Shown: positions 21,133 through 29,365 of the stretch, piece by piece | How positions within the stretch are numbered: position 1 is the stretch's first letter | Layout of the letters: each line of letters opens with the position of its first letter | IMG/VR virus record: IMGVR_UViG_3300024269_004845 | Source: a virus | Lineage: Duplodnaviria > Caudoviricetes | Direction: 5' to 3' (one strand) | DNA: 64,000 nt | Notes under the pieces: model-generated | The model's database searches: none | The model's input: only the letters and a program-made list of their open reading frames with translations | Told to the model about the DNA's origin: nothing | Translations under genes and position numbers: made by a program

Positions 21133-22866
21133 TTAAAATGCACCACAGTGTAGTCTGTCACGAATAGTCTTGAGGTCTTCATCTACAAGAAGCTTGCCAT
21201 CCTTAAATACAGGGCGAAGTAGATTATCTGCATACTCGGGGTTAGTCATTTCTTTAAATGTATGATGGTCAGTATAACGAATATCATCGCCATCTCGGAA
21301 GAGATAACAGAGGCCTTTCTGAGACTTCTTGAAATTATTACCCTTAATCTTGTCAGTAATAGGGTCCTTATAAATCTGACGTTCCTCTCCATTGATAATA
21401 CTATTAGTAGCTTTTAAAGCGAATCCTAGAGAGTCCCTCGTATTGTACTGGTAGGTAAAGCTACCCACGCCAAGCGTACAGTTATTAACTGCGAATCCCT
21501 TTTCTGCGAGACGAGTATAAATAGCAATTGCTCTTTCAGGCGTAATGCTATCACCATAAATAGCGCCAATATGAGGGTCGAGTACCTTATAACCCTTGCT
21601 GTTAATAGTACCACCGAAGATTTCCCAAAGAAGTTCAACAGTACCCTTCATAGCAGGAGTAATTTCGGCCTTTTCGAAATCTACATACTCAACAGTTTCA
21701 GTATAGTATCCATCACCATCTTCGTCAGTGGTCCAAGCATGGTCACAAGTTACCTTGTAAAGATAATCGCCAATTCTTACTCGATACCAAGTTTCAGAAG
21801 CGCCATTATAAGAATATTCATCTTCGGCTTTCTTCTTAAAGTAATCCTTGATACCGTCTTCAGTCAGACCATCTACTACCATGTAGTCGGAACCCTTGAG
21901 CTCACCACAGATAATATCAATGGGGTCACCGCTATCACCACGAATGATAATCTTACCATTACGGGCCATAATGGACTTCTTTAGACGAGGTAGATAATTA
22001 GTAATTACATTCCAGTAATCATAGGTGTCAGATACCATACTCAGAGGGCCAGTCTTAAATACATCCTCGATTAGATGACGATAGCATTCAAATTCACCTT
22101 CACGACCGTAAGAACTCATAACAGAGTGTTCGGTAGAAGGAACTCCACGGCCTACGGTTTCCTTGGTACAATCGCAGTTGTAGAAGTCTTCAAGCCACAT
22201 AATAGAAGCAATAGTAGCAGTACCAGTGAAAGAAAGAAGATGTCCTGCGCTGGACTTATATGCGGTATCCTTAGAAGTCATACCACGCATAGAGAAGTCA
22301 CCGCAAGCGCTGGAAGGTACGCCATTCTCAACTGTAAGTTCAAAGAACTTTTCAACGATTTCACGGTACTTATAAGCGATTGTAGCAGCAGTCATAGGAT
22401 GCCAAATATTTACACTGATATAGGTTTCAAGATAATTAACGAGCCAACCAAAACCCTTGACAGTATTAGAAATTTCAAACATTGGGGTCTTGATATTTAC
22501 ACGAGTACCCTCGGCAACAGCCTTAATCTGGATAGGTAGATAACCAAGGTCGTAAAGCTTCTTCATTTCAGTGGTATCAGCAGCCTGCTCAGTCATGGTA
22601 TGAGCAATGACACGCTTATATTCTGCTTCAATCTCTTCCCAAGGACGACCGAAGAAATGCTTTTCAAAAGCATCAATTAGATATTCCTTAATAAGACCCT
22701 GAAGACCAAACATAACAACCTTATTTACGCCCTCAATACGAGTCATACGAGGAGTCCAATAAGAAACAAGAAATTCCAGACCAGGCACATATGCCAGGTG
22801 ATGAATTGTCTTATAAAAGTCAGTTTCGAGCAATGGATTAATAGTGTGAGTTCTTGCGTTATTCAT
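21133..22866 (-). CDS. NAMPT/NadV-family phosphoribosyl- or ADP-ribosyl-transferase
   Basis: TDFYK, DFSMRG, PSTEHSVM, SMVSDTYD, RGDSGDP, IYGDSIT, GVGS, TRD, KDP; about 80 aa acidic insert after DPIDIICG. Confidence 0.9.
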   Translation of the reverse strand: MNNARTHTINPLLETDFYKTIHHLAYVPGLEFLVSYWTPRMTRIEGVNKVVMFGLQGLIKEYLIDAFEKHFFGRPWEEIEAEYKRVIAHTMTEQAADTTEMKKLYDLGYLPIQIKAVAEGTRVNIKTPMFEISNTVKGFGWLVNYLETYISVNIWHPMTAATIAYKYREIVEKFFELTVENGVPSSACGDFSMRGMTSKDTAYKSSAGHLLSFTGTATIASIMWLEDFYNCDCTKETVGRGVPSTEHSVMSSYGREGEFECYRHLIEDVFKTGPLSMVSDTYDYWNVITNYLPRLKKSIMARNGKIIIRGDSGDPIDIICGELKGSDYMVVDGLTEDGIKDYFKKKAEDEYSYNGASETWYRVRIGDYLYKVTCDHAWTTDEDGDGYYTETVEYVDFEKAEITPAMKGTVELLWEIFGGTINSKGYKVLDPHIGAIYGDSITPERAIAIYTRLAEKGFAVNNCTLGVGSFTYQYNTRDSLGFALKATNSIINGEERQIYKDPITDKIKGNNFKKSQKGLCYLFRDGDDIRYTDHHTFKEMTNPEYADNLLRPVFKDGKLLVDEDLKTIRDRLHCGAF

Positions 22867-22909
22867 AAAAATTTCCCCCTTAGTGAAATTTATTTTTTAT
22901 TATTATATT

Positions 22910-22934
22910 ACTTAAATACATTTTGTATCTAAGT
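22910..22934. promoter_or_regulatory. candidate operator upstream of NAMPT-like gene
   Basis: ACTTAAATACATTTTGTATCTAAGT near-palindrome just downstream of a TTGACT...TATAGT promoter. Confidence 0.6.
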
Positions 22935-22991
22935 CTATATATACTATAACATATTTTTTTAAAAAAGTCAAGTAAAATGTCTTACTAAAAC

Positions 22992-23022
22992 AAAAAATGC
23001 TACTGAAAATTTCAGTAGCATT
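22992..23022 (-). terminator. intrinsic terminator closing the tRNA array
   Basis: AATGCTACTGAAA/TTTCAGTAGCATT-type stem followed by T-tract on minus strand. Confidence 0.75.
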
Positions 23023-23029
23023 AAAATTA

Positions 23030-23123
23030 TGGCGGAGACGGGGAGGCTCGAACTCCCGCACCGTTTTTTAGACGGCCTACCTCATTAGCAGTGAGGCCTC
23101 GTCACCATCTTGAGTACGTCTCC
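23030..23123 (-). tRNA. tRNA-Ser(GCT)
   Basis: cloverleaf, CCTCA-ctGCTaa-TGAGG, long V-arm, G73-CCA. Confidence 0.95.
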
Positions 23124-23133
23124 ATACACACTA

Positions 23134-23355
23134 TTATTCCAGCGTGAAGTATTGGATTTTCTCATATGAGAAACCAATATCTTCATGCGGAACATAGAAA
23201 ATTTCCTTTATAAGAGGGAGAAATTGATTATCTGGACGTTGCATTTCTTCAACGACCATGATAGCTGTGTCTTCATCAGGAACTATTAATATGGGAAGGC
23301 GATTAAAATCATCATATTCACCATATGAACCTTGAATCAGAAACATAACAATCAA
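23134..23355 (-). CDS. hypothetical protein
   Basis: acidic 73 aa ORF, GSYGEYDD motif. Confidence 0.55.
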   Translation of the reverse strand: MIVMFLIQGSYGEYDDFNRLPILIVPDEDTAIMVVEEMQRPDNQFLPLIKEIFYVPHEDIGFSYEKIQYFTLE

Positions 23356-23498
23356 ACCCTCGCAGAAAAATTTAAGGAGTGACTATTTCGAACATCCCAT
23401 CACTCACGGGGGCTCATTTGATTTCTCGTGAACGTTGCTCTTAAGTCCATGGGCTCAGATGCGTTGTCCCGATATGGCGCAGTGACGTAACTGCGCAA

Positions 23499-23810
23499 TT
23501 AACGAAGATTATGCATGAGCATAAAATTAGTGATAAAGTGACGCAAGAACTTACGAAGTTCTTCTTCATCAAGTGAAGTAGTCTCCTTTAAGGAACGCAA
23601 AACTTCATTACCTAAAGAGGTGACCTTGTGGTAGTTGTTATCTTCAAGAACGTTTCCGAAAATTTCAACCATATCATCAGAACTGTAATCTTCTGGTTCG
23701 ACTACTTTGTTGTAGTCTCCTATATCCTCTTCTGCGTAATCAGATATAGGTCCATAGAAATATGCTCTGTTTCCACTCGGGTTTTCCATAACGGTCCAAT
23801 TTCTAAACAT
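23499..23810 (-). CDS. hypothetical protein
   Basis: GGAG SD, acidic 103 aa. Confidence 0.65.
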   Translation of the reverse strand: MFRNWTVMENPSGNRAYFYGPISDYAEEDIGDYNKVVEPEDYSSDDMVEIFGNVLEDNNYHKVTSLGNEVLRSLKETTSLDEEELRKFLRHFITNFMLMHNLR

Positions 23811-23834
23811 ATATAATCTCCATTCTCAAAGAAA

Positions 23835-24168
23835 ATATGGCATTCGACCTGCAATCCGCAATCCTTCTTAACTAGGGAGTAGCGAGTTTTATCCCTTGTA
23901 CTTCGGGCACCTACTTTACCCCTCATGCTTTAGTCTCCATTTAAGGCCTCTGGCTGTTGCCACCAAGATTAACTTTGAATATATTAGGTAGATACTGCAC
24001 CCTCTTATGGGCATCGTCACTACTATTCGGTTTCGATAAATTATAAAACTTATCAAAACCTATAAGGATTATCCTTAATCGCAGTATTTAATAGAAACTA
24101 AATCATAATCATACGACTTAGTTTCAAGAGAGATATGGCGAACTATACCTCTCTATGACTCACTTACC
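23835..24168 (-). ncRNA. candidate multi-helix structured RNA (about 330 nt)
   Basis: hairpins 24127-24154, 24094-24125 and 24029-24060 whose mismatches are all G-U on the minus strand; boundaries approximate. Confidence 0.5.
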
Positions 24169-24310
24169 TGGAGCTGGTGGTCGGACTCGAACCGACAACC
24201 TACTGATTATGGTGGTTATCACAAGATTTGAACTCATATCTCCGACTAGCGGTGTCTTTCTTAGACGAGACAACCCAAGTCAGTTGCGCTGCCAATTGCG
24301 CCACACCAGC
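24169..24310 (-). tRNA. tRNA-Thr(TGT) interrupted between positions 35 and 36 by a 66-nt insert
   Basis: 35-nt 5' half (24276-24310) plus 41-nt 3' half (24169-24209) give a canonical 76-nt cloverleaf. Confidence 0.9.
24210..24275 (-). ncRNA. nested mini-tRNA (acceptor, D, shrunken anticodon, T arms, ACCA)
   Basis: GGTTGTC TC GTCT AAGAA AGAC A CCG CTAGT CGG AGAT ATGAG TTCAAAT CTTGT GATAACC A CCA. Confidence 0.85.
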
Positions 24311-24492
24311 ATATAGCCTATTTTGATTAAAGACCCAAATTAATCATATTCACTCGATTAATAAGAGTTTATTATATAACTAATAAGATGCTTTCGATTA
24401 ACCACTACTAACATCTAGCCTCTAATCCTGTATAGGGACAGGCACTTGGCTTTTTTTGTTGAGAACGCTATAGTGCGAAGTGAAACATTTAA

Positions 24493-24569
24493 TGGTAGGC
24501 CTGAAGGGACTTGAACCCCTGACCAAGCGCTTATGAGGCGCCAGCTCTAACCAACTGAGCTACAGGCCT
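24493..24569 (-). tRNA. tRNA(CAT), probably Ile2 rather than Met
   Basis: ctCATaa loop, Ile-like body AGGCCTGTAGCTCAGTTGGTTAGAGC, C4-G69, A73. Confidence 0.85.
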
Positions 24570-24814
24570 ATATAAAATGAGGGAATAGCATCATCACCCT
24601 CGATGGCACGTTGTGCGAGCTGCCTTCGGAAAGTCGCCGTCTCGTAATCCACATTCACGGACTTACTTCAGCAATGTAGATACGGTTTAACCATGCCCAA
24701 ACCATACAACGCTTCTGCCTCAACTGCATCGCTCAAAATGGGCTCCTACCGCAAAGTAACTAGCCGTTTTGTATATCAAACCTAGTTAGAAAAATTACTC
24801 TTGCGCAAGAGATA

Positions 24815-24901
24815 TGGTGCCGCAGGCGGGAATCGAACCCGCACACTGTTTCCAGTAAGGGTTTTTGAGACCCTCGCGTCTGCCTGTTCCGCCACTGCGG
24901 C
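24815..24901 (-). tRNA. tRNA-Leu(CAA)
   Basis: AGGGT-ctCAAaa-ACCCT, long V-arm, ACCA. Confidence 0.95.
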
Positions 24902-24921
24902 ATATCACTTTCAACATATTT

Positions 24922-24950
24922 ATTATAACATATTATTCCCTCAAAGTCAA
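24922..24950 (-). promoter_or_regulatory. sigma70/SigA promoter inside tRNA array
   Basis: TTGACT-N17-TATAAT with TG extension. Confidence 0.8.
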
Positions 24951-24978
24951 GTATTTTCGGGCTTTTTTGAAAGTTTTT

Positions 24979-25055
24979 TGGGGTCGAGGGCAGGACTCGA
25001 ACCTGCAAGGACTGGGGTTAATCCCCAGTATGTCTTCCAATTCCACCACCTCGAC
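24979..25055 (-). tRNA. aberrant tRNA-like gene (nominal anticodon TTA, A33, C73)
   Basis: perfect acceptor and T arms; anticodon arm CTGGGG-ATTAA-CCCCAG; Leu-like D-loop but short V-loop. Confidence 0.75.
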
Positions 25056-25062
25056 AAATAAA

Positions 25063-25239
25063 AGATACTAAACCTGCACTCCCGATTCTCCAAGCAGGAC
25101 AACCCTCTATTCCAAACCATATTATTTGGAACCCTTATAGGCGTCAACAAACGGGTCATAGCTATTTTGTCATCTACATGTTATTCCCATAATTACTTAC
25201 AGGCACTCGATATCGTACTTTTACTACCATTTAGTATCT
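25063..25239 (-). ncRNA. candidate structured spacer RNA (177 nt)
   Basis: closed by 10-bp AGATACTAAA/TTTAGTATCT, fills the spacer between two tRNAs. Confidence 0.45.
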
Positions 25240-25240
25240 A

Positions 25241-25332
25241 TGGCGGAGGCGGTGAGGTTCGAACTCACGCGGCGCTATTAACGCCCTACTCCCTTTCCAG
25301 GGGAGCCCCTTTGACCACTTGGGTACACCTCC
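25241..25332 (-). tRNA. tRNA-Ser(GGA)
   Basis: CTCCC-ctGGAaa-GGGAG, long V-arm, GCCA. Confidence 0.95.
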
Positions 25333-25343
25333 ATAAAATTAAG

Positions 25344-25572
25344 AAACCACCGACAACAGTCGCTTACGATTTTCACGCTGTCTCCAAGTCATGAGCTTGG
25401 CGCTTTATATTCGCATAGTATCAACAAGCAAGTGAATCATGACTTTCACCCGTTATCTTGTGACTTGTGCCTTCTAAGCTATTTGCCCCTATCACGATTA
25501 TCCTTTATGCGCTGGACCAGCTGGCGGGCATTCTATTAAGCATTCCTATTATTTCAAGGCTATCAGTGGTTT
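25344..25572 (-). ncRNA. candidate structured spacer RNA (229 nt)
   Basis: 14-bp closing helix AAACCACTGATAGC/GTTGTCGGTGGTTT with 3 G-U pairs, begins right after a tRNA CCA. Confidence 0.55.
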
Positions 25573-25691
25573 TGGTGGGAGAGGTTGGATTCGAACCAAC
25601 GAACGGTGAGCAACCGACCTTTTTTACGTGATAAGGTGCTAATCTTATCATGGTGCACCAAGGCTCCTTTAACCTCTTGGATACTCTCTCC
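25573..25691 (-). tRNA. tRNA-Tyr(GTA)-like gene with about 29-nt insert in the anticodon loop
   Basis: Tyr-type D-arm, V-arm, T-arm and ACCA; 31 nt instead of 2 between anticodon stem and GTAAA. Confidence 0.7.
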
Positions 25692-25713
25692 ATATATGCC
25701 GCAAATGCGGCTA

Positions 25714-25956
25714 TTAATATCCTTCTCTAATACAATTTCTAATCATTTCTTTAGTCCAAGGAGTTGTATCCTGGCAAGCAAAATGATTAATTGCCATTAG
25801 TGGAAGTTTATTTTTATTTAGTTCTTTCTTAATAAAAGAAATCATATCATCAGCTTCTTCATCATTGACAAAGAAGTCGAAACCTAAAGTAACAGGACCA
25901 CCACATCGAATATCGACGGGGTCGTTTCTTTCACAATCAACTATGATTTTTCTCAT
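25714..25956 (-). CDS. hypothetical protein
   Basis: GGAGG SD, 80 aa. Confidence 0.65.
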   Translation of the reverse strand: MRKIIVDCERNDPVDIRCGGPVTLGFDFFVNDEEADDMISFIKKELNKNKLPLMAINHFACQDTTPWTKEMIRNCIREGY

Positions 25957-25984
25957 ATATTAGATTCCTCCTGTGATTGTTTCT

Positions 25985-26070
25985 TGGTGGGCCAGGCTGG
26001 ACTTGAACCAGCAATGCCGTGAGGCGCCTGATTTACAGTCAGGTGGGGTTACCAATTTTCCTACTGACCC
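25985..26070 (-). tRNA. tRNA-Tyr(GTA), G1-C72
   Basis: CCTGA-ctGTAaa-TCAGG, V-arm, ACCA. Confidence 0.93.
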
Positions 26071-26073
26071 ATA

Positions 26074-26156
26074 TGGTAGGCCAGGTGGGTGCCGACCCCA
26101 CTACCCCGAAGGAACGGTTTTACAGACCGCCGCGTTTGCCGATTCGCTACTGACCT
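26074..26156 (-). tRNA. tRNA-Tyr(GTA), A1-U72, atypical T-loop GTCGGCA
   Basis: GCGGT-ctGTAaa-ACCGT, V-arm, ACCA. Confidence 0.88.
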
Positions 26157-26162
26157 ATATAA

Positions 26163-26251
26163 TGGTCCCTGGGGTCAGATTTGAACTGACAGTGTTTCTT
26201 ATGTCACGGTTTTACAGACCGCTGGCTTCAACCAATTCGCCACACCCAGGG
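26163..26251 (-). tRNA. tRNA-Tyr(GTA), C1-G72
   Basis: CCCTGGG/CCCAGGG acceptor, ctGTAaa loop, long V region, ACCA. Confidence 0.88.
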
Positions 26252-26287
26252 ATATATAATTACATTTAAGATAAAATTGATTTTAAT

Positions 26288-26332
26288 GGCAACATTAACT
26301 TAAAGAATTATATATCCCTAAGTTAAGTTGCC
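26288..26332 (-). promoter_or_regulatory. switch hairpin between Tyr leader ORF and tRNA-Tyr
   Basis: GGCAAC-TTAACTTA...TAAGTTAA-t-GTTGCC enclosing AGGGATATATAATT, the complement of 26248-26261. Confidence 0.7.
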
Positions 26333-26358
26333 TAAATATACTGATAATATCGATACAT
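26332..26358 (-). CDS. Tyr-rich leader peptide MYRYYQYI
   Basis: AAAAGGAG-9nt-ATG TAT CGA TAT TAT CAG TAT ATT TAG directly upstream of three tRNA-Tyr. Confidence 0.75.
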   Translation of the reverse strand: MYRYYQYI

Positions 26359-26407
26359 TTAGTACAACTCCTTTTAATTTATTTTTATTGGTCCCTACTT
26401 AAAGGGA

Positions 26408-26502
26408 TGGCGGTAGCGGAGGGATTCGAACCCCCATGTCGGTTCAAAGCCGACACACAAGATTTCAAGTCTAGGCCGTTATAACCATTTCGGTACGCTA
26501 CC
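26408..26502 (-). tRNA. tRNA-Ser(TGA)
   Basis: ctTGAaa loop, long V-arm, GCCA; one mismatch in anticodon stem. Confidence 0.92.
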
Positions 26503-26518
26503 ATATATAATTTGTAAA

Positions 26519-26615
26519 TGGCGGGGAAGGTAGGATTTGAACCCACGTGCCCAAGGTAAAAACGGACAACCTCTTTTCGAGAGAGGCGCAATCAGCCAGA
26601 CTCTGCCACTTCCCC
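26519..26615 (-). tRNA. tRNA-Ser(CGA)
   Basis: CCTCT-ctCGAaa-AGAGG, long V-arm, GCCA. Confidence 0.93.
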
Positions 26616-26760
26616 ATGTGCGATTCTTAAGCAATTTACAAATTGCAGTCTATTAGAGGCCCTGCAACACTCTAACACTTACAATAAGATTTCACTTAAA
26701 CATTGTTATTCTTCGTAAGGACTCCGCCACTCTTACATCAGATGGGAGCGACCCATCAAC

Positions 26761-26837
26761 TGGTAGGCCCTCTGGGGCTCGAACCCAGGACCGAGCGCTT
26801 ATGAGGCGCTAGCTCTAACCGACTGAGCTAAGGGCCT
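26761..26837 (-). tRNA. tRNA(CAT), probably Ile2
   Basis: AGCGC-ctCATaa-GCGCT, paralog of 24493-24569. Confidence 0.85.
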
Positions 26838-26840
26838 ATA

Positions 26841-27002
26841 TAATACAATAAGCTGTTTATCTCATTCCATTTACCACAGCTACTTTTTCATATATCCAAG
26901 ACCTTCTACATCCTTGGCAATTCTCTCTACTGACCTTTCGGGCCTTGTTCGATACACTTTTGACAAGGGAGGGATATATGCTTCGTGGCACTTATCGTAT
27001 TA
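26841..27002 (-). ncRNA. candidate structured spacer RNA (162 nt)
   Basis: 12-bp closing helix TAATACGATAAG/CTTATTGTATTA with one G-U. Confidence 0.5.
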
Positions 27003-27206
27003 AAAATATTTCAACTATTGGTATTCTATTCCTAAACTATCACGCCGCCTAAGCACACGATGTCGGATTTTCACCGATGTCTCCAATCAATTGAAAAAAT
27101 AACAGGCTGTTCATCAAACTCCACTTAGCCGTTTCGTAACTTCCATCCACCCTCTCGTGGGACACAAAGACTGCGGCACCTATTATTGAAAGAGTATTGC
27201 TACTCA

Positions 27207-27293
27207 TGGTGCGGATGGGGGGACTTGAACCCCCACGGGATTGCTCCCACAAGCACCTCAAGCTTGCGTGTCTGCCTATTCCACCACACCCGC
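27207..27293 (-). tRNA. tRNA-Leu(GAG)
   Basis: CAAGC-ttGAGgt-GCTTG, V-arm, ACCA. Confidence 0.95.
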
Positions 27294-27297
27294 ATAT

Positions 27298-27585
27298 TTA
27301 CATAAAACAATCTCTAATCAATCGATTATAAAGAGTAGAGTCTGTTCTTTTTAGCTCAGCAAGAGGTTGGACAATTTCATCTGGCATAACAATTCCAGTA
27401 GCATCATAGAAAACACCATCAATTTTGGTGATAAAGTGTCCTCTGATTGGCATGTAATAGATTCTTGCATAAGGGAAGCGCTTACATAAAATAAGTGCAA
27501 ACCAAAGGCAATTACCATCAATCCAATTAGCGTCCTTTTTCCATCTACGACGAATAAAATCCAATACTTCTTCTTGCTTATTCAA
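27298..27585 (-). CDS. hypothetical phage-type protein
   Basis: AAGGAG SD; GNCLWFA...GHF...FYDATG (Cys-His-Asp pattern). Confidence 0.7.
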   Translation of the reverse strand: MNKQEEVLDFIRRRWKKDANWIDGNCLWFALILCKRFPYARIYYMPIRGHFITKIDGVFYDATGIVMPDEIVQPLAELKRTDSTLYNRLIRDCFM

Positions 27586-27610
27586 TTAAAAATCTCCTTT
27601 ATCAGAGATA

Positions 27611-27697
27611 TGGTGCCGCTGACGGGAATCGAACCCGTATGAGGTTTCCCTCGAGGGATTTTAAGTCCCTTGTGTCTGCCAGTTCCACCACAGCGGC
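27611..27697 (-). tRNA. tRNA-Leu(TAA)
   Basis: AGGGA-ctTAAaa-TCCCT, V-arm, ACCA. Confidence 0.95.
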
Positions 27698-27946
27698 ATA
27701 TAGAAAATCCCAAAACTAATCAGCTGTTAATCAAACACCATTACTCCAGCACTTTAAACGCTTGCAGGTGTCAAACCTAGCACTTTATGCGGTTCTCGGA
27801 GCACTAACCATTTTGGGGGCTGATTCAACATCAGTCGTACTACATATAAAGGGGTGTTCAATCTTTCTCAGTTAAACTACTACTCAATATATGTATCCAA
27901 TACGCACGGTCTCCCGCGATATTGCCTTTGGGCCAACTTAATGGCT

Positions 27947-28029
27947 TGGTGCTGGCGGTGGGACTCGAACCCACACGGTTGCCCACTGGTTCCTAAGACC
28001 AGCGCGTCTGCCAATTCCGCCACGCCAGC
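27947..28029 (-). tRNA. tRNA-Leu(TAG)
   Basis: CTGGT-ctTAGga-ACCAG, V-arm, ACCA. Confidence 0.95.
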
Positions 28030-28041
28030 ATGTGGAGGATA

Positions 28042-28530
28042 TTAATAACTATCCTCGCCGTTTAGAGAATCATCATTAAAAATCCAATCCTCTACACGCA
28101 ATACTCGGTAGTTGTCCTTGTCGTCTCTGACAACAACAGTATCGATACCAGCATTGATAATCATTCTCTTGCACATAGAGCAAGGTTCAGACTTTGCTAC
28201 GTAAGCACCAGTATCCTTTTCCTTACCACAGAGATAAAGAGTAGCACCAATCATCTTTTCACGAGAAGCAGAAATAATAGCATTTGCTTCAGCATGAACA
28301 CTGCGGCAAAGTTCATATCTAGTACCACGAGGTACATTGAGCTTAGCACGAATACAAGTACCTACGTCACAACAATTCTTTCTTCCACGAGGTGCACCTA
28401 CATAACCAGTAGAAACAATCTCGTCATTCTTAACGATTACTGCACCATAATTACGTCTTAGACAGGTGCCACGTTCAAGAACAGTTTCAGCGATATCGAG
28501 GTAATAATTTGTCTTATCAATTCTATTCAT
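28042..28530 (-). CDS. dCMP deaminase family protein
   Basis: TCLRR.YGAVIV, VHAEANAII, PCSMC; start ATG 28530 after AAGGAG. Confidence 0.9.
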   Translation of the reverse strand: MNRIDKTNYYLDIAETVLERGTCLRRNYGAVIVKNDEIVSTGYVGAPRGRKNCCDVGTCIRAKLNVPRGTRYELCRSVHAEANAIISASREKMIGATLYLCGKEKDTGAYVAKSEPCSMCKRMIINAGIDTVVVRDDKDNYRVLRVEDWIFNDDSLNGEDSY

Positions 28531-28563
28531 CGGAATCTCTCCTTTGTTATTTTTCTTGTCTCT

Positions 28564-28592
28564 ATTATAACATAAAACCCAATAGAAATCAA
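28564..28592 (-). promoter_or_regulatory. sigma70/SigA promoter
   Basis: TTGATT-N17-TATAAT with TG extension. Confidence 0.7.
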
Positions 28593-28644
28593 TATATAAC
28601 ATGTAAAAATTTCGATAAATTTGTTTGATAATTTCTATTGGGAC

Positions 28645-28684
28645 AAACAAAAACCCCTTGCAAAACTCGTAGTTCTGCAAGGGG
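28645..28684 (-). terminator. intrinsic terminator or attenuator after leader ORF
   Basis: CCCCTTGCAGAACT-acg-AGTTTTGCAAGGGG-TTTTTGTTT. Confidence 0.85.
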
Positions 28685-28720
28685 CATAAAGAACATTCTT
28701 AGAAATACCTTATAATCCCG

Positions 28721-28819
28721 TTATACAGCAGTCAGAGTTTTGCGCATGACAAATGAACTCATAAGTATATATGAGCTGGACAAACTATATAAACTGGATA
28801 GCATGTTCATATTCATCAT
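28721..28819 (-). CDS. 32-aa Ser/Leu/Tyr/Met-rich leader peptide
   Basis: AAGGAGGAG SD; MMNMNMLSSLYSLSSSYILMSSFVMRKTLTAV*. Confidence 0.65.
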   Translation of the reverse strand: MMNMNMLSSLYSLSSSYILMSSFVMRKTLTAV

Positions 28820-28920
28820 GACAAAGTCTCCTCCTTAACAAGATTTTTTAAAGTATTTTTAAAGTATATCTTATACTATGATTGAACCGAGCTAATTATT
28901 ACTCGAATGTGTTTTATAGA

Positions 28921-29052
28921 ATATAGTCGTGAATATCAGCAACGATTTTGTTTGAGTTCTATAAGGTTTGAATTCAGGTTTCAAAGAATAGAAATTAATA
29001 AAAATTTACATTTAATTTTTAGATGAAATCGTTATCTCCGCTACGACTATAT
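28921..29052 (-). ncRNA. candidate structured 5' leader or small RNA
   Basis: ATATAGTCGT/ACGACTATAT plus AACGATTT/AAATCGTT nested helices, directly after promoter 29055-29083. Confidence 0.45.
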
Positions 29053-29054
29053 AC

Positions 29055-29083
29055 ATTATAACATGTTATTTTCGAAAAGTCAA
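29055..29083 (-). promoter_or_regulatory. sigma70/SigA promoter
   Basis: TTGACT-N17-TATAAT with TG extension. Confidence 0.8.
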
Positions 29084-29107
29084 GACCTTTTTGCAAATTT
29101 TTTAAAA

Positions 29108-29365
29108 TTATTGTTCGAGGTCTTTCATTAGACTAATCAATTTACTTTTAAGCCGTCCACATTCTTTAATCCTTAGAAACATCTTTAAGGTAATAATTGA
29201 GATGATAATAAATGCGATAGTTGTTACCGTTACAGAAACATTAAAGAATGTGGAAATTGCTGTTACAATAGATAATATAAATAGCAAACAAATAATCTTG
29301 AAGTCGTTTTTATTTTGCTTTGTGATTTTATCTATTGTAATTTTTAGCTTTTCTTTTAATTCCAT
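29108..29365 (-). CDS. small membrane protein
   Basis: two hydrophobic segments, AAGGAG SD. Confidence 0.65.
   Translation of the reverse strand: MELKEKLKITIDKITKQNKNDFKIICLLFILSIVTAISTFFNVSVTVTTIAFIIISIITLKMFLRIKECGRLKSKLISLMKDLEQ

Follow-up and report, generated by a model that had tools for sequence, protein, structure and literature searches.

Why would the first of three adjacent tRNA-Tyr genes in a phage be preceded by a miniature ORF rich in Tyr codons, and by a strand able to pair across the tRNA's own 5' end? The question arises from a 64,000-nt stretch of DNA (the window; IMG/VR record IMGVR_UViG_3300024269_004845), which is AT-rich, belongs to a large phage, and codes for a NAMPT-like enzyme, a dCMP deaminase, a CCA-adding enzyme, and an NAD-dependent ligase. 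ARAGORN places an array of 14 tRNA genes on its minus strand at 23030-28029, nearly all of them class II and one a suppressor with a UUA anticodon, and calls three tRNA-Tyr(GTA) genes, just as a reading made from the sequence alone had claimed. That reading had also described a Shine-Dalgarno (SD) sequence, a mini-ORF, a hairpin, and a 14-nt complement of the 5' end of the first tRNA-Tyr (tRNA-Tyr1), and each of these was found exactly where it had been placed. The array appears to share a transcript with translated genes, namely those for the dCMP deaminase, a YunG-like protein, and an 80-aa protein.

Other features of the window lie outside the Tyr block. At 24979-25055 (-) and 24213-24275 (-), the window holds the suppressor-type tRNA with the UUA anticodon and an extra, weak Rfam tRNA-like match (34 bits) uncalled by ARAGORN; the suppressor-type tRNA is kept in four relatives (L084, L086, L087, and L106). 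Directly after the CCA of tRNA-Ser(tga), at 26392-26407 (-), is a 5-bp hairpin, UCCCU-UUAAGU-AGGGA, which reads UCUCA...UGAGA in L082, L085, and L106, amounting to two compensatory pair changes, and is absent from the L108 lineage. Finally, 28645-28836 (-) holds an SD with a 32-codon ORF, MMNMNMLSSLYSLSSSYILMSSFVMRKTLTAV, in which the Leu, Ser, and Tyr codons read by array tRNAs are frequent. This ORF is followed by a U-tract terminator (28685..28653), whose 3' arm contains GAGTTTTGC, the reverse complement of GCAAAACTC at the end of the ORF. The element looks like a classical leader-peptide attenuator and is located upstream of the gene for the dCMP deaminase, which in turn precedes the array.

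Layout of the spacer upstream of tRNA-Tyr1

The features of the spacer and of the Tyr block are collected in Table 1. The mini-ORF has TAT at codons 2, 4, 5, and 7, or four of its seven sense codons, and the probability of at least four TAY codons in seven, as calculated from the triplet frequency of the window, is 1.6e-4. The G of its TAG stop codon is the first base of hairpin B.

Table 1. Coordinates of the leader ORF, the overlapping helices, and the tRNA-Tyr genes in the window
Feature	Coordinates	Strand	Details
Shine-Dalgarno AAAAGGAG	26368..26375	-	9 nt before ATG (8 nt in the L108 lineage); AAAGGAG invariant in 5/5 variants
Eight-codon leader ORF MYRYYQYI*	26332..26358	-	ATG TAT CGA TAT TAT CAG TAT ATT TAG
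Helix A (regions 1:2)	26325..26370	-	-17.1 kcal/mol, z -5.4
Hairpin B (regions 2:3)	26288..26332	-	18 bp, one bulged base; -21.1 kcal/mol, z -7.9
Helix C, 5' strand (anti-tRNA strand CUUAGGGAUAUAUAAUUCUUUAAG)	26299..26322	-	Includes the 14-mer 26319..26306
Helix C, 3' strand (region 4)	26245..26270	-	Last 19 nt of the 5' leader plus tRNA-Tyr1 nt 1-7; spans the RNase P cleavage site 26252/26251
tRNA-Tyr1 (GTA), class II	26163..26251	-	C1-G72, A73, encoded CCA; Rfam tRNA 32.8 bits; acceptor strand clamped by predicted helix C
tRNA-Tyr2 and tRNA-Tyr3	25985..26156	-	Directly downstream of tRNA-Tyr1; spacers of 6 nt and 3 nt

Three helices overlap in the spacer, and the sequence-only reading had described two of them, missing the third, helix A. 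In helix A, GAGUUGU of the SD region pairs with GCAACUU, CUAAAUGUAU pairs with GUAUAUUUAG, and a small inner stem follows, such that the start-codon region is joined with codons 7-9, and part of the SD and the AUG are sequestered. Hairpin B, whose position had been given correctly but whose length had been put at only 14 bp, holds the anti-tRNA strand in its loop and upper stem. Helix C is built around AGGGATATATAATT (26319..26306), the exact reverse complement of AATTATATATCCCT (26261..26248). This match had been recognized as pairing with a 10-nt leader and tRNA nt 1-4; the full helix is longer, comprising 24 bp and reaching tRNA nt 7, with an energy of -26.5 kcal/mol and a z-score of -7.2 in the window. 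By first-order Markov simulation, only 0.08 exact inverted repeats of at least 14 nt within 120 nt are expected per window.

The arrangement can be divided into four regions: region 1 runs from the SD through the early ORF, region 2 comprises the ORF end and GGCAACUUAACUUA, region 3 comprises the anti-strand and UAAGUUAAUGUUGCC, and region 4 consists of the leader and tRNA nt 1-7. Helices A and B are mutually exclusive, as they share GGCAACUU, and B and C are mutually exclusive, as they share CUUAGGGA...UCUUUAAG. Helix C also competes with the acceptor stem of tRNA-Tyr1. The locus combines a mini-ORF of fixed cognate codons with an anti-strand that can bridge the RNase P site and that an alternative hairpin can sequester.

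The complementarity is centered on tRNA-Tyr1, in that tRNA-Tyr2 and tRNA-Tyr3 show none to the anti-strand beyond the AU-rich leader. The AATTATATAT portion of the helix C target is not unique, since almost every tRNA in the array has (T)ATAT before position +1, and the 10-nt leader of tRNA-Ser(tga) is identical to that of tRNA-Tyr1. The (T)ATAT motif stands immediately 5' of nearly all 14 tRNAs at 23030-28029 (e.g., tatat before G, or atatat before C), possibly as a context for RNase P or a nuclease.

No U-tract lies 3' of either B or C, as had been claimed: the sequence after helix C is UGUGGCGAAUUGG and that after hairpin B is AUUAAAAUCAA, and a terminator scan that finds clear U-tract terminators elsewhere in the window calls neither. 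An intrinsic terminator was rejected on this ground. A repeated element was likewise rejected, given that the spacer is unique in the window.

Relatives and their substitutions

Relatives of the module were found only in ENA and Logan metagenome assemblies, where they were reached via the gene for the 80-aa protein downstream of the Tyr block and via a LAGLIDADG gene; from the sample labels of the assemblies, they seemingly come from the ruminant gut. Five variants in two lineages are represented, including the window, L082 (= L083), L085, L106, and L108 (= L109, L110). The last constitutes the second lineage, which is more than 12% different, has several indels, and carries the module after tRNA-Ser(cga), not tRNA-Ser(tga). 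The close relatives are approximately 98% identical in the spacer, which is better conserved than parts of the adjacent tRNA.

Across the five variants, the SD, the ATG, the eight-codon length, the four TAT codons, and the TAG are unchanged. All three non-Tyr codons are replaced in L108 (CGA to TCT, CAG to AAG, and ATT to ATG), where the mini-ORF reads ATG TAT TCT TAT TAT AAG TAT ATG TAG (MYSYYKYM*). Substitutions thus affect 5/9 nt in the non-Tyr codons versus 0/18 elsewhere in the mini-ORF (hypergeometric p = 0.0016 by nucleotide, 0.012 by codon). The invariance of the Tyr codons is partly confounded, because pairing in helix A can explain codons 2 and 7 equally well, and UAU-rich sequence is inherently self-complementary. 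Among the fetched loci, the mini-ORF precedes all seven Tyr1-type (C1-G72) tRNA genes that have upstream sequence, and it precedes none of the 19 other tRNA-Tyr genes (four Tyr3-type copies downstream of those Tyr1 genes and 15 others). The module travels with tRNA-Tyr1, standing after tRNA-Ser(tga) in the window lineage and after tRNA-Ser(cga) in the L108 lineage.

The helices are preserved as well. In the relatives too, hairpin B begins at the G of the TAG and has the anti-strand in its loop. It is paired in 100% of 90 cells across the five variants, one pair having gone from U-A to U.G; the only position that varies freely is the bulged base (U, C, or A). In helix C, all 24 pairs are kept (120/120 cells), and all five independent substitutions are A-to-G opposite U, converting A-U to G.U on one side only; by contrast, four of the five substitutions in the mini-ORF are transversions. 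The pairing of helix C therefore survives only as RNA, and only on the minus strand. We estimate the chance of this substitution pattern at 0.001-0.004, given a 0.25-0.33 chance that each substitution preserves a pair. A DNA-level inverted repeat was rejected, as the substitutions maintain pairing solely as G.U on one strand. Two indels in L108, an inserted TG on one side of helix C and a deleted T on the other, convert an internal loop into pairs and strengthen the helix to -35.9 kcal/mol. Helix A is kept there in a shifted register (-13.2 kcal/mol) and appears in the RNAalifold consensus; the z-scores against shuffles in L108 are -3.2 for A, -6.7 for B, and -8.7 for C. The sequence-only reading had proposed checking homologs for conserved Tyr codons, which they have, and for compensatory changes, which helices B and C do not display: no pair in either helix is changed on both sides in the five variants of the two lineages, and a shuffle control was uninformative. 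Strict covariation is consequently lacking.

Wider searches returned no further copies. Neither an exact ORF pattern nor a hairpin pattern had a match in IMG/VR, and a degenerate ORF pattern, ATGTATNNNTATTATNNNTATNNNTAG, matched 58 IMG/VR stretches, of which none had a tRNA in the ~260 nt after the ORF and only three had an SD; these were therefore treated as chance matches. In JGI metagenomes, a protein-guided scan and a DNA pattern both gave no match, nor did the hairpin pattern in GTDB genomes, and blastn against GenBank phages yielded matches to the tRNAs only. Relatives of the dCMP deaminase were too distant and not syntenic, while those of the 80-aa and YunG-like proteins below approximately 90% identity lay in other contexts or were without the spacer. 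No Rfam family was found in the spacer.

The tRNA-Tyr genes themselves vary among the relatives. The CCCTGGG of tRNA-Tyr1 is invariant, as are the acceptor and T arms, while the variable arm (~26185-26207; alignment columns 225-250) is hypervariable and is wholly different in three near-identical relatives. This divergence suggests diversifying pressure on the arm that Septu reportedly cuts (PMC13096335). The second tRNA-Tyr in all relatives (L082:2510-2600; also L083, L085, L106, and L108-L110) has an insertion of ~90 nt inside the anticodon, which matches no Rfam intron and contains a T-arm-like hairpin of its own (GAGCUUAG-UUCAAAC-CUAAG); the second tRNA-Tyr of the window (26074-26156) is the uninterrupted allele. 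The relatives also carry an ORF of 308-410 aa resembling a LAGLIDADG homing endonuclease between tRNA-Tyr3 and the 80-aa gene (L082:2772-4004, L085:1266-2450, L106:971-2167, and L108:3501-4427), and these ORFs are 58-72% identical to each other. The window is without this ORF, and the insertion point matches ~25957-25984.

Candidate explanations for the module

The minimum-free-energy fold of the spacer plus tRNA consists of A and C in all variants, and the RNAalifold consensus independently arrives at A and C. A fold with B and a closed acceptor stem lies only 1-5 kcal/mol above this minimum, in nearest-neighbour energies that ignore tRNA tertiary structure and modifications. With only regions 1-3 transcribed, the upper part of A coexists with hairpin B, and C takes over once region 4 appears. 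Ribosome states were modelled by masking a crude footprint and refolding, a purely thermodynamic treatment without tRNA tertiary structure or kinetics. In four of the five variants, such constrained folding results in helix C when the ribosome sits at the stop codon or has Tyr codon 7 in its A site; in the same four, placing Tyr codon 2, 4, or 5 there results in B and the cloverleaf. Helix C is very stable in L108, such that a stall at codon 4 alone releases the tRNA at equilibrium. The earlier proposal, in which a ribosome reaching the stop leads to the anti-tRNA helix and a stalled one to the hairpin and a folded tRNA, is reproduced by this model in those four variants but has to be amended to include helix A.

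Our preferred reading, with a probability of roughly 0.45, is that the module may be an erm/trp-style, ribosome-operated RNA switch that governs how accessible the 5' end of tRNA-Tyr1 is. Rather than a terminator or a ribosome-binding site, the switch would control the phage's own tRNA-Tyr1, through its acceptor strand and 5' leader. The reading draws on the conserved mini-ORF and helices, on the apparent sharing of a transcript between the array and translated genes, and on the classical-looking leader ORF with a terminator ahead of the dCMP deaminase gene. We infer that the mini-ORF is translated, that ribosomes stall on it, and that tRNA maturation is affected. Without a ribosome, A (1:2) and C (3:4) would form, and the presence of helix A means that this ground state would be locked, as in erm-type attenuators. 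A ribosome reading through to the UAG would cover region 2 and leave the RNA locked, with the outcome of the ground state. In the locked state, the acceptor stem of tRNA-Tyr1 could not close, and the RNA would not be a substrate for RNase P. Should charged tRNA-Tyr become scarce, the ribosome would stall on Tyr codon 2, 4, or 5, occupying region 1 and leaving region 2 free; B (2:3) could then form, the anti-strand would be held in its upper stem and loop, and region 4 would be freed, allowing tRNA-Tyr1 to fold and be processed. Several points count against such a switch. The AUG and part of the SD are tied up in helix A (-13 to -17 kcal/mol), a likely obstacle to initiation unless the ribosome loads during transcription; just one of three adjacent tRNA-Tyr genes would be gated; and the variants number only five, in two lineages.

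The trigger could conceivably lie in counter-defence, although we consider this unlikely. tRNA-Tyr is a known target of anti-phage nucleases, and a phage tRNA-Tyr can rescue infection (PMC11555353); Septu reportedly cuts the variable loop of tRNA-Tyr (PMC13096335). A backup tRNA-Tyr might be kept locked in its precursor and freed only when a host nuclease (retron-Eco7/PtuAB-like or Septu-like) destroys the tRNA-Tyr of the cell and thereby stalls ribosomes on UAU. The backup has a non-bacterial C1-G72 pair and a fast-evolving variable arm, and on this improbable account tRNA maturation would respond to a ribosome-sensed, post-transcriptional alarm. The C1-G72 pair and divergent variable arm of tRNA-Tyr1 would fit a backup tRNA released on decoding stress.

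Another explanation dispenses with translation altogether: A and C (or B) could serve as a processing or folding element of a polycistronic tRNA precursor, for example as a long duplex cut by RNase III or as RNA that orders cleavage, and the mini-ORF would be a by-product of the AU-rich helix A. The dominance of A and C, as the minimum-free-energy fold of every variant and as the RNAalifold consensus, is what such an element would predict, and a 24-bp duplex such as helix C is RNase III-sized. Helix A also hides the AUG and some of the SD, and in L108 an inner stem is re-formed in a new register by the changes in codons 3 and 6. Nevertheless, a cut inside helix C would hit or adjoin the acceptor strand, and hairpin B, the most significant of the helices (z -7.9), fully paired and exclusive with both A and C, would be left without a role. 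Nor would an untranslated spacer account for the SD, ATG, frame, length, stop, and apical UAUUAU being kept while neighboring bases change. We therefore find this explanation rather doubtful. Chance is far less credible still. The ~98% identity of the close relatives in the spacer could give an appearance of conservation to a fortuitous arrangement in AU-rich DNA, where TA-rich sequence is self-complementary and where ATGTATNNNTATTATNNNTATNNNTAG recurs in the 58 IMG/VR stretches without a tRNA in the next ~260 nt. Yet L108, at more than 12% difference and with indels, retains all three helices and the ORF, the z-scores range from -5 to -9, and the spacer has changed less than parts of the neighboring tRNA; a chance origin is accordingly very improbable.

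Two further explanations invoke transcription. Entry of RNA polymerase into the Tyr genes might be set by a leader-peptide attenuator or pause element that works through pausing, Rho, or a non-canonical terminator. The trp and his leaders have the same four-region architecture, and the canonical leader ORF and U-tract terminator upstream of the dCMP deaminase gene preceding the array lend this idea some appeal. It is nonetheless quite improbable, since neither B nor C has the U-tract that clear terminators elsewhere in the window possess, helix C ends inside the tRNA, and the AU-rich region has, by our own reading, no C-rich stretch for loading Rho. Alternatively, the Tyr block could have its own internal promoter of the sigma-70 type (TAGGCA-16-TATAAT, 26334..26307), and the inverted repeats could be incidental. 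A promoter scan matches this site at 10/12 positions on the correct strand, and L108 has TATGAT in the same place. The -10 is TGTAAT in L082, L085, and L106, however, so that three of five variants lose the critical second-position A, and a -10 hexamer with both A2 and T6, properly spaced from a -35, is not conserved. The scan gave 21 such sites versus 16.7 expected from shuffles, and a promoter leaves the RNA-only (G.U) conservation of helix C unexplained. A conserved promoter in the spacer is unlikely, and as the function of the module as a whole it has hardly any probability.

Relation to known leader systems

In erm-type attenuation, a short leader ORF precedes an RNA with a 1:2 plus 3:4 ground state; a stalled ribosome brings about 2:3 and exposes segment 4, without a terminator, and the mechanism can act on finished RNA. 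In trp-type leaders, a mini-ORF is enriched in the codons of one amino acid, the speed of the ribosome senses charged tRNA, and the ribosome-free state is "off". These are the closest known systems to the candidate switch, comprising erm/cat-type translational attenuation (e.g., the ermC leader peptide; cf. PMC5499644, PMC5118997) and the leader attenuators of amino-acid operons and pheST (trpL, hisL, pheL, and pheM; cf. PMC3082878, PMC4046918).

Like the erm/cat systems, the module has a short ORF and no terminator, and constrained folding under a thermodynamic model predicts, in four of five variants, a 1:2 plus 3:4 ground state that gives way to a 2:3 helix upon stalling. Unlike them, its segment 4 is the leader of tRNA-Tyr1 with nt 1-7, rather than the SD and start of a downstream ORF; a shortage of cognate tRNA at four Tyr codons, rather than a drug and the nascent peptide, would cause the stall; and the proposed output is tRNA folding and RNase P processing. 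With trpL, hisL, pheL, and pheM, the module shares an ORF with a ribosome-binding site enriched in codons for the sensed amino acid, and a mutually exclusive 1:2/2:3/3:4 layout in which the ORF overlaps regions 1 and 2 and each helix has a z-score of -5 or lower in the window. It differs from them in that its 3:4 helix is without a U-tract and is not a terminator, that the controlled gene would be the very tRNA that reads the sensor codons, that the ORF has only 8 codons, and that helix 1:2 includes the SD and AUG. A further likeness is to the T-box, which also senses the state of a specific tRNA and controls the same amino-acid system through alternative helices. Unlike a T-box, the element here is only ~125 nt long and has a translatable ORF in place of a specifier loop and T-box bulge; an Rfam scan of 22800-29200 gives it no T-box match, tRNAs being the only hits in this stretch.

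A full-text literature search turned up no account of tRNA genes or tRNA maturation being under leader-peptide control, in keeping with the sequence-only reading, whose author knew of no described attenuator with tRNA processing as its output. If the switch is real, ribosome-mediated attenuation would gain a class of output beyond transcription termination and translation initiation, namely tRNA folding and processing, and a tRNA pool would feed back on its own maturation. Phages would then be able to gate single tRNAs on decoding stress, not simply express tRNA genes, which bears on why phages carry tRNAs and on their arms race with defence systems that cleave tRNA-Tyr (PMC11555353, PMC13096335). 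At ~125 nt plus the tRNA, the element is small enough for direct tests in vitro. Having neither the terminator of the amino-acid leaders nor the SD that forms segment 4 in erm, it would work like both systems while being a member of neither.
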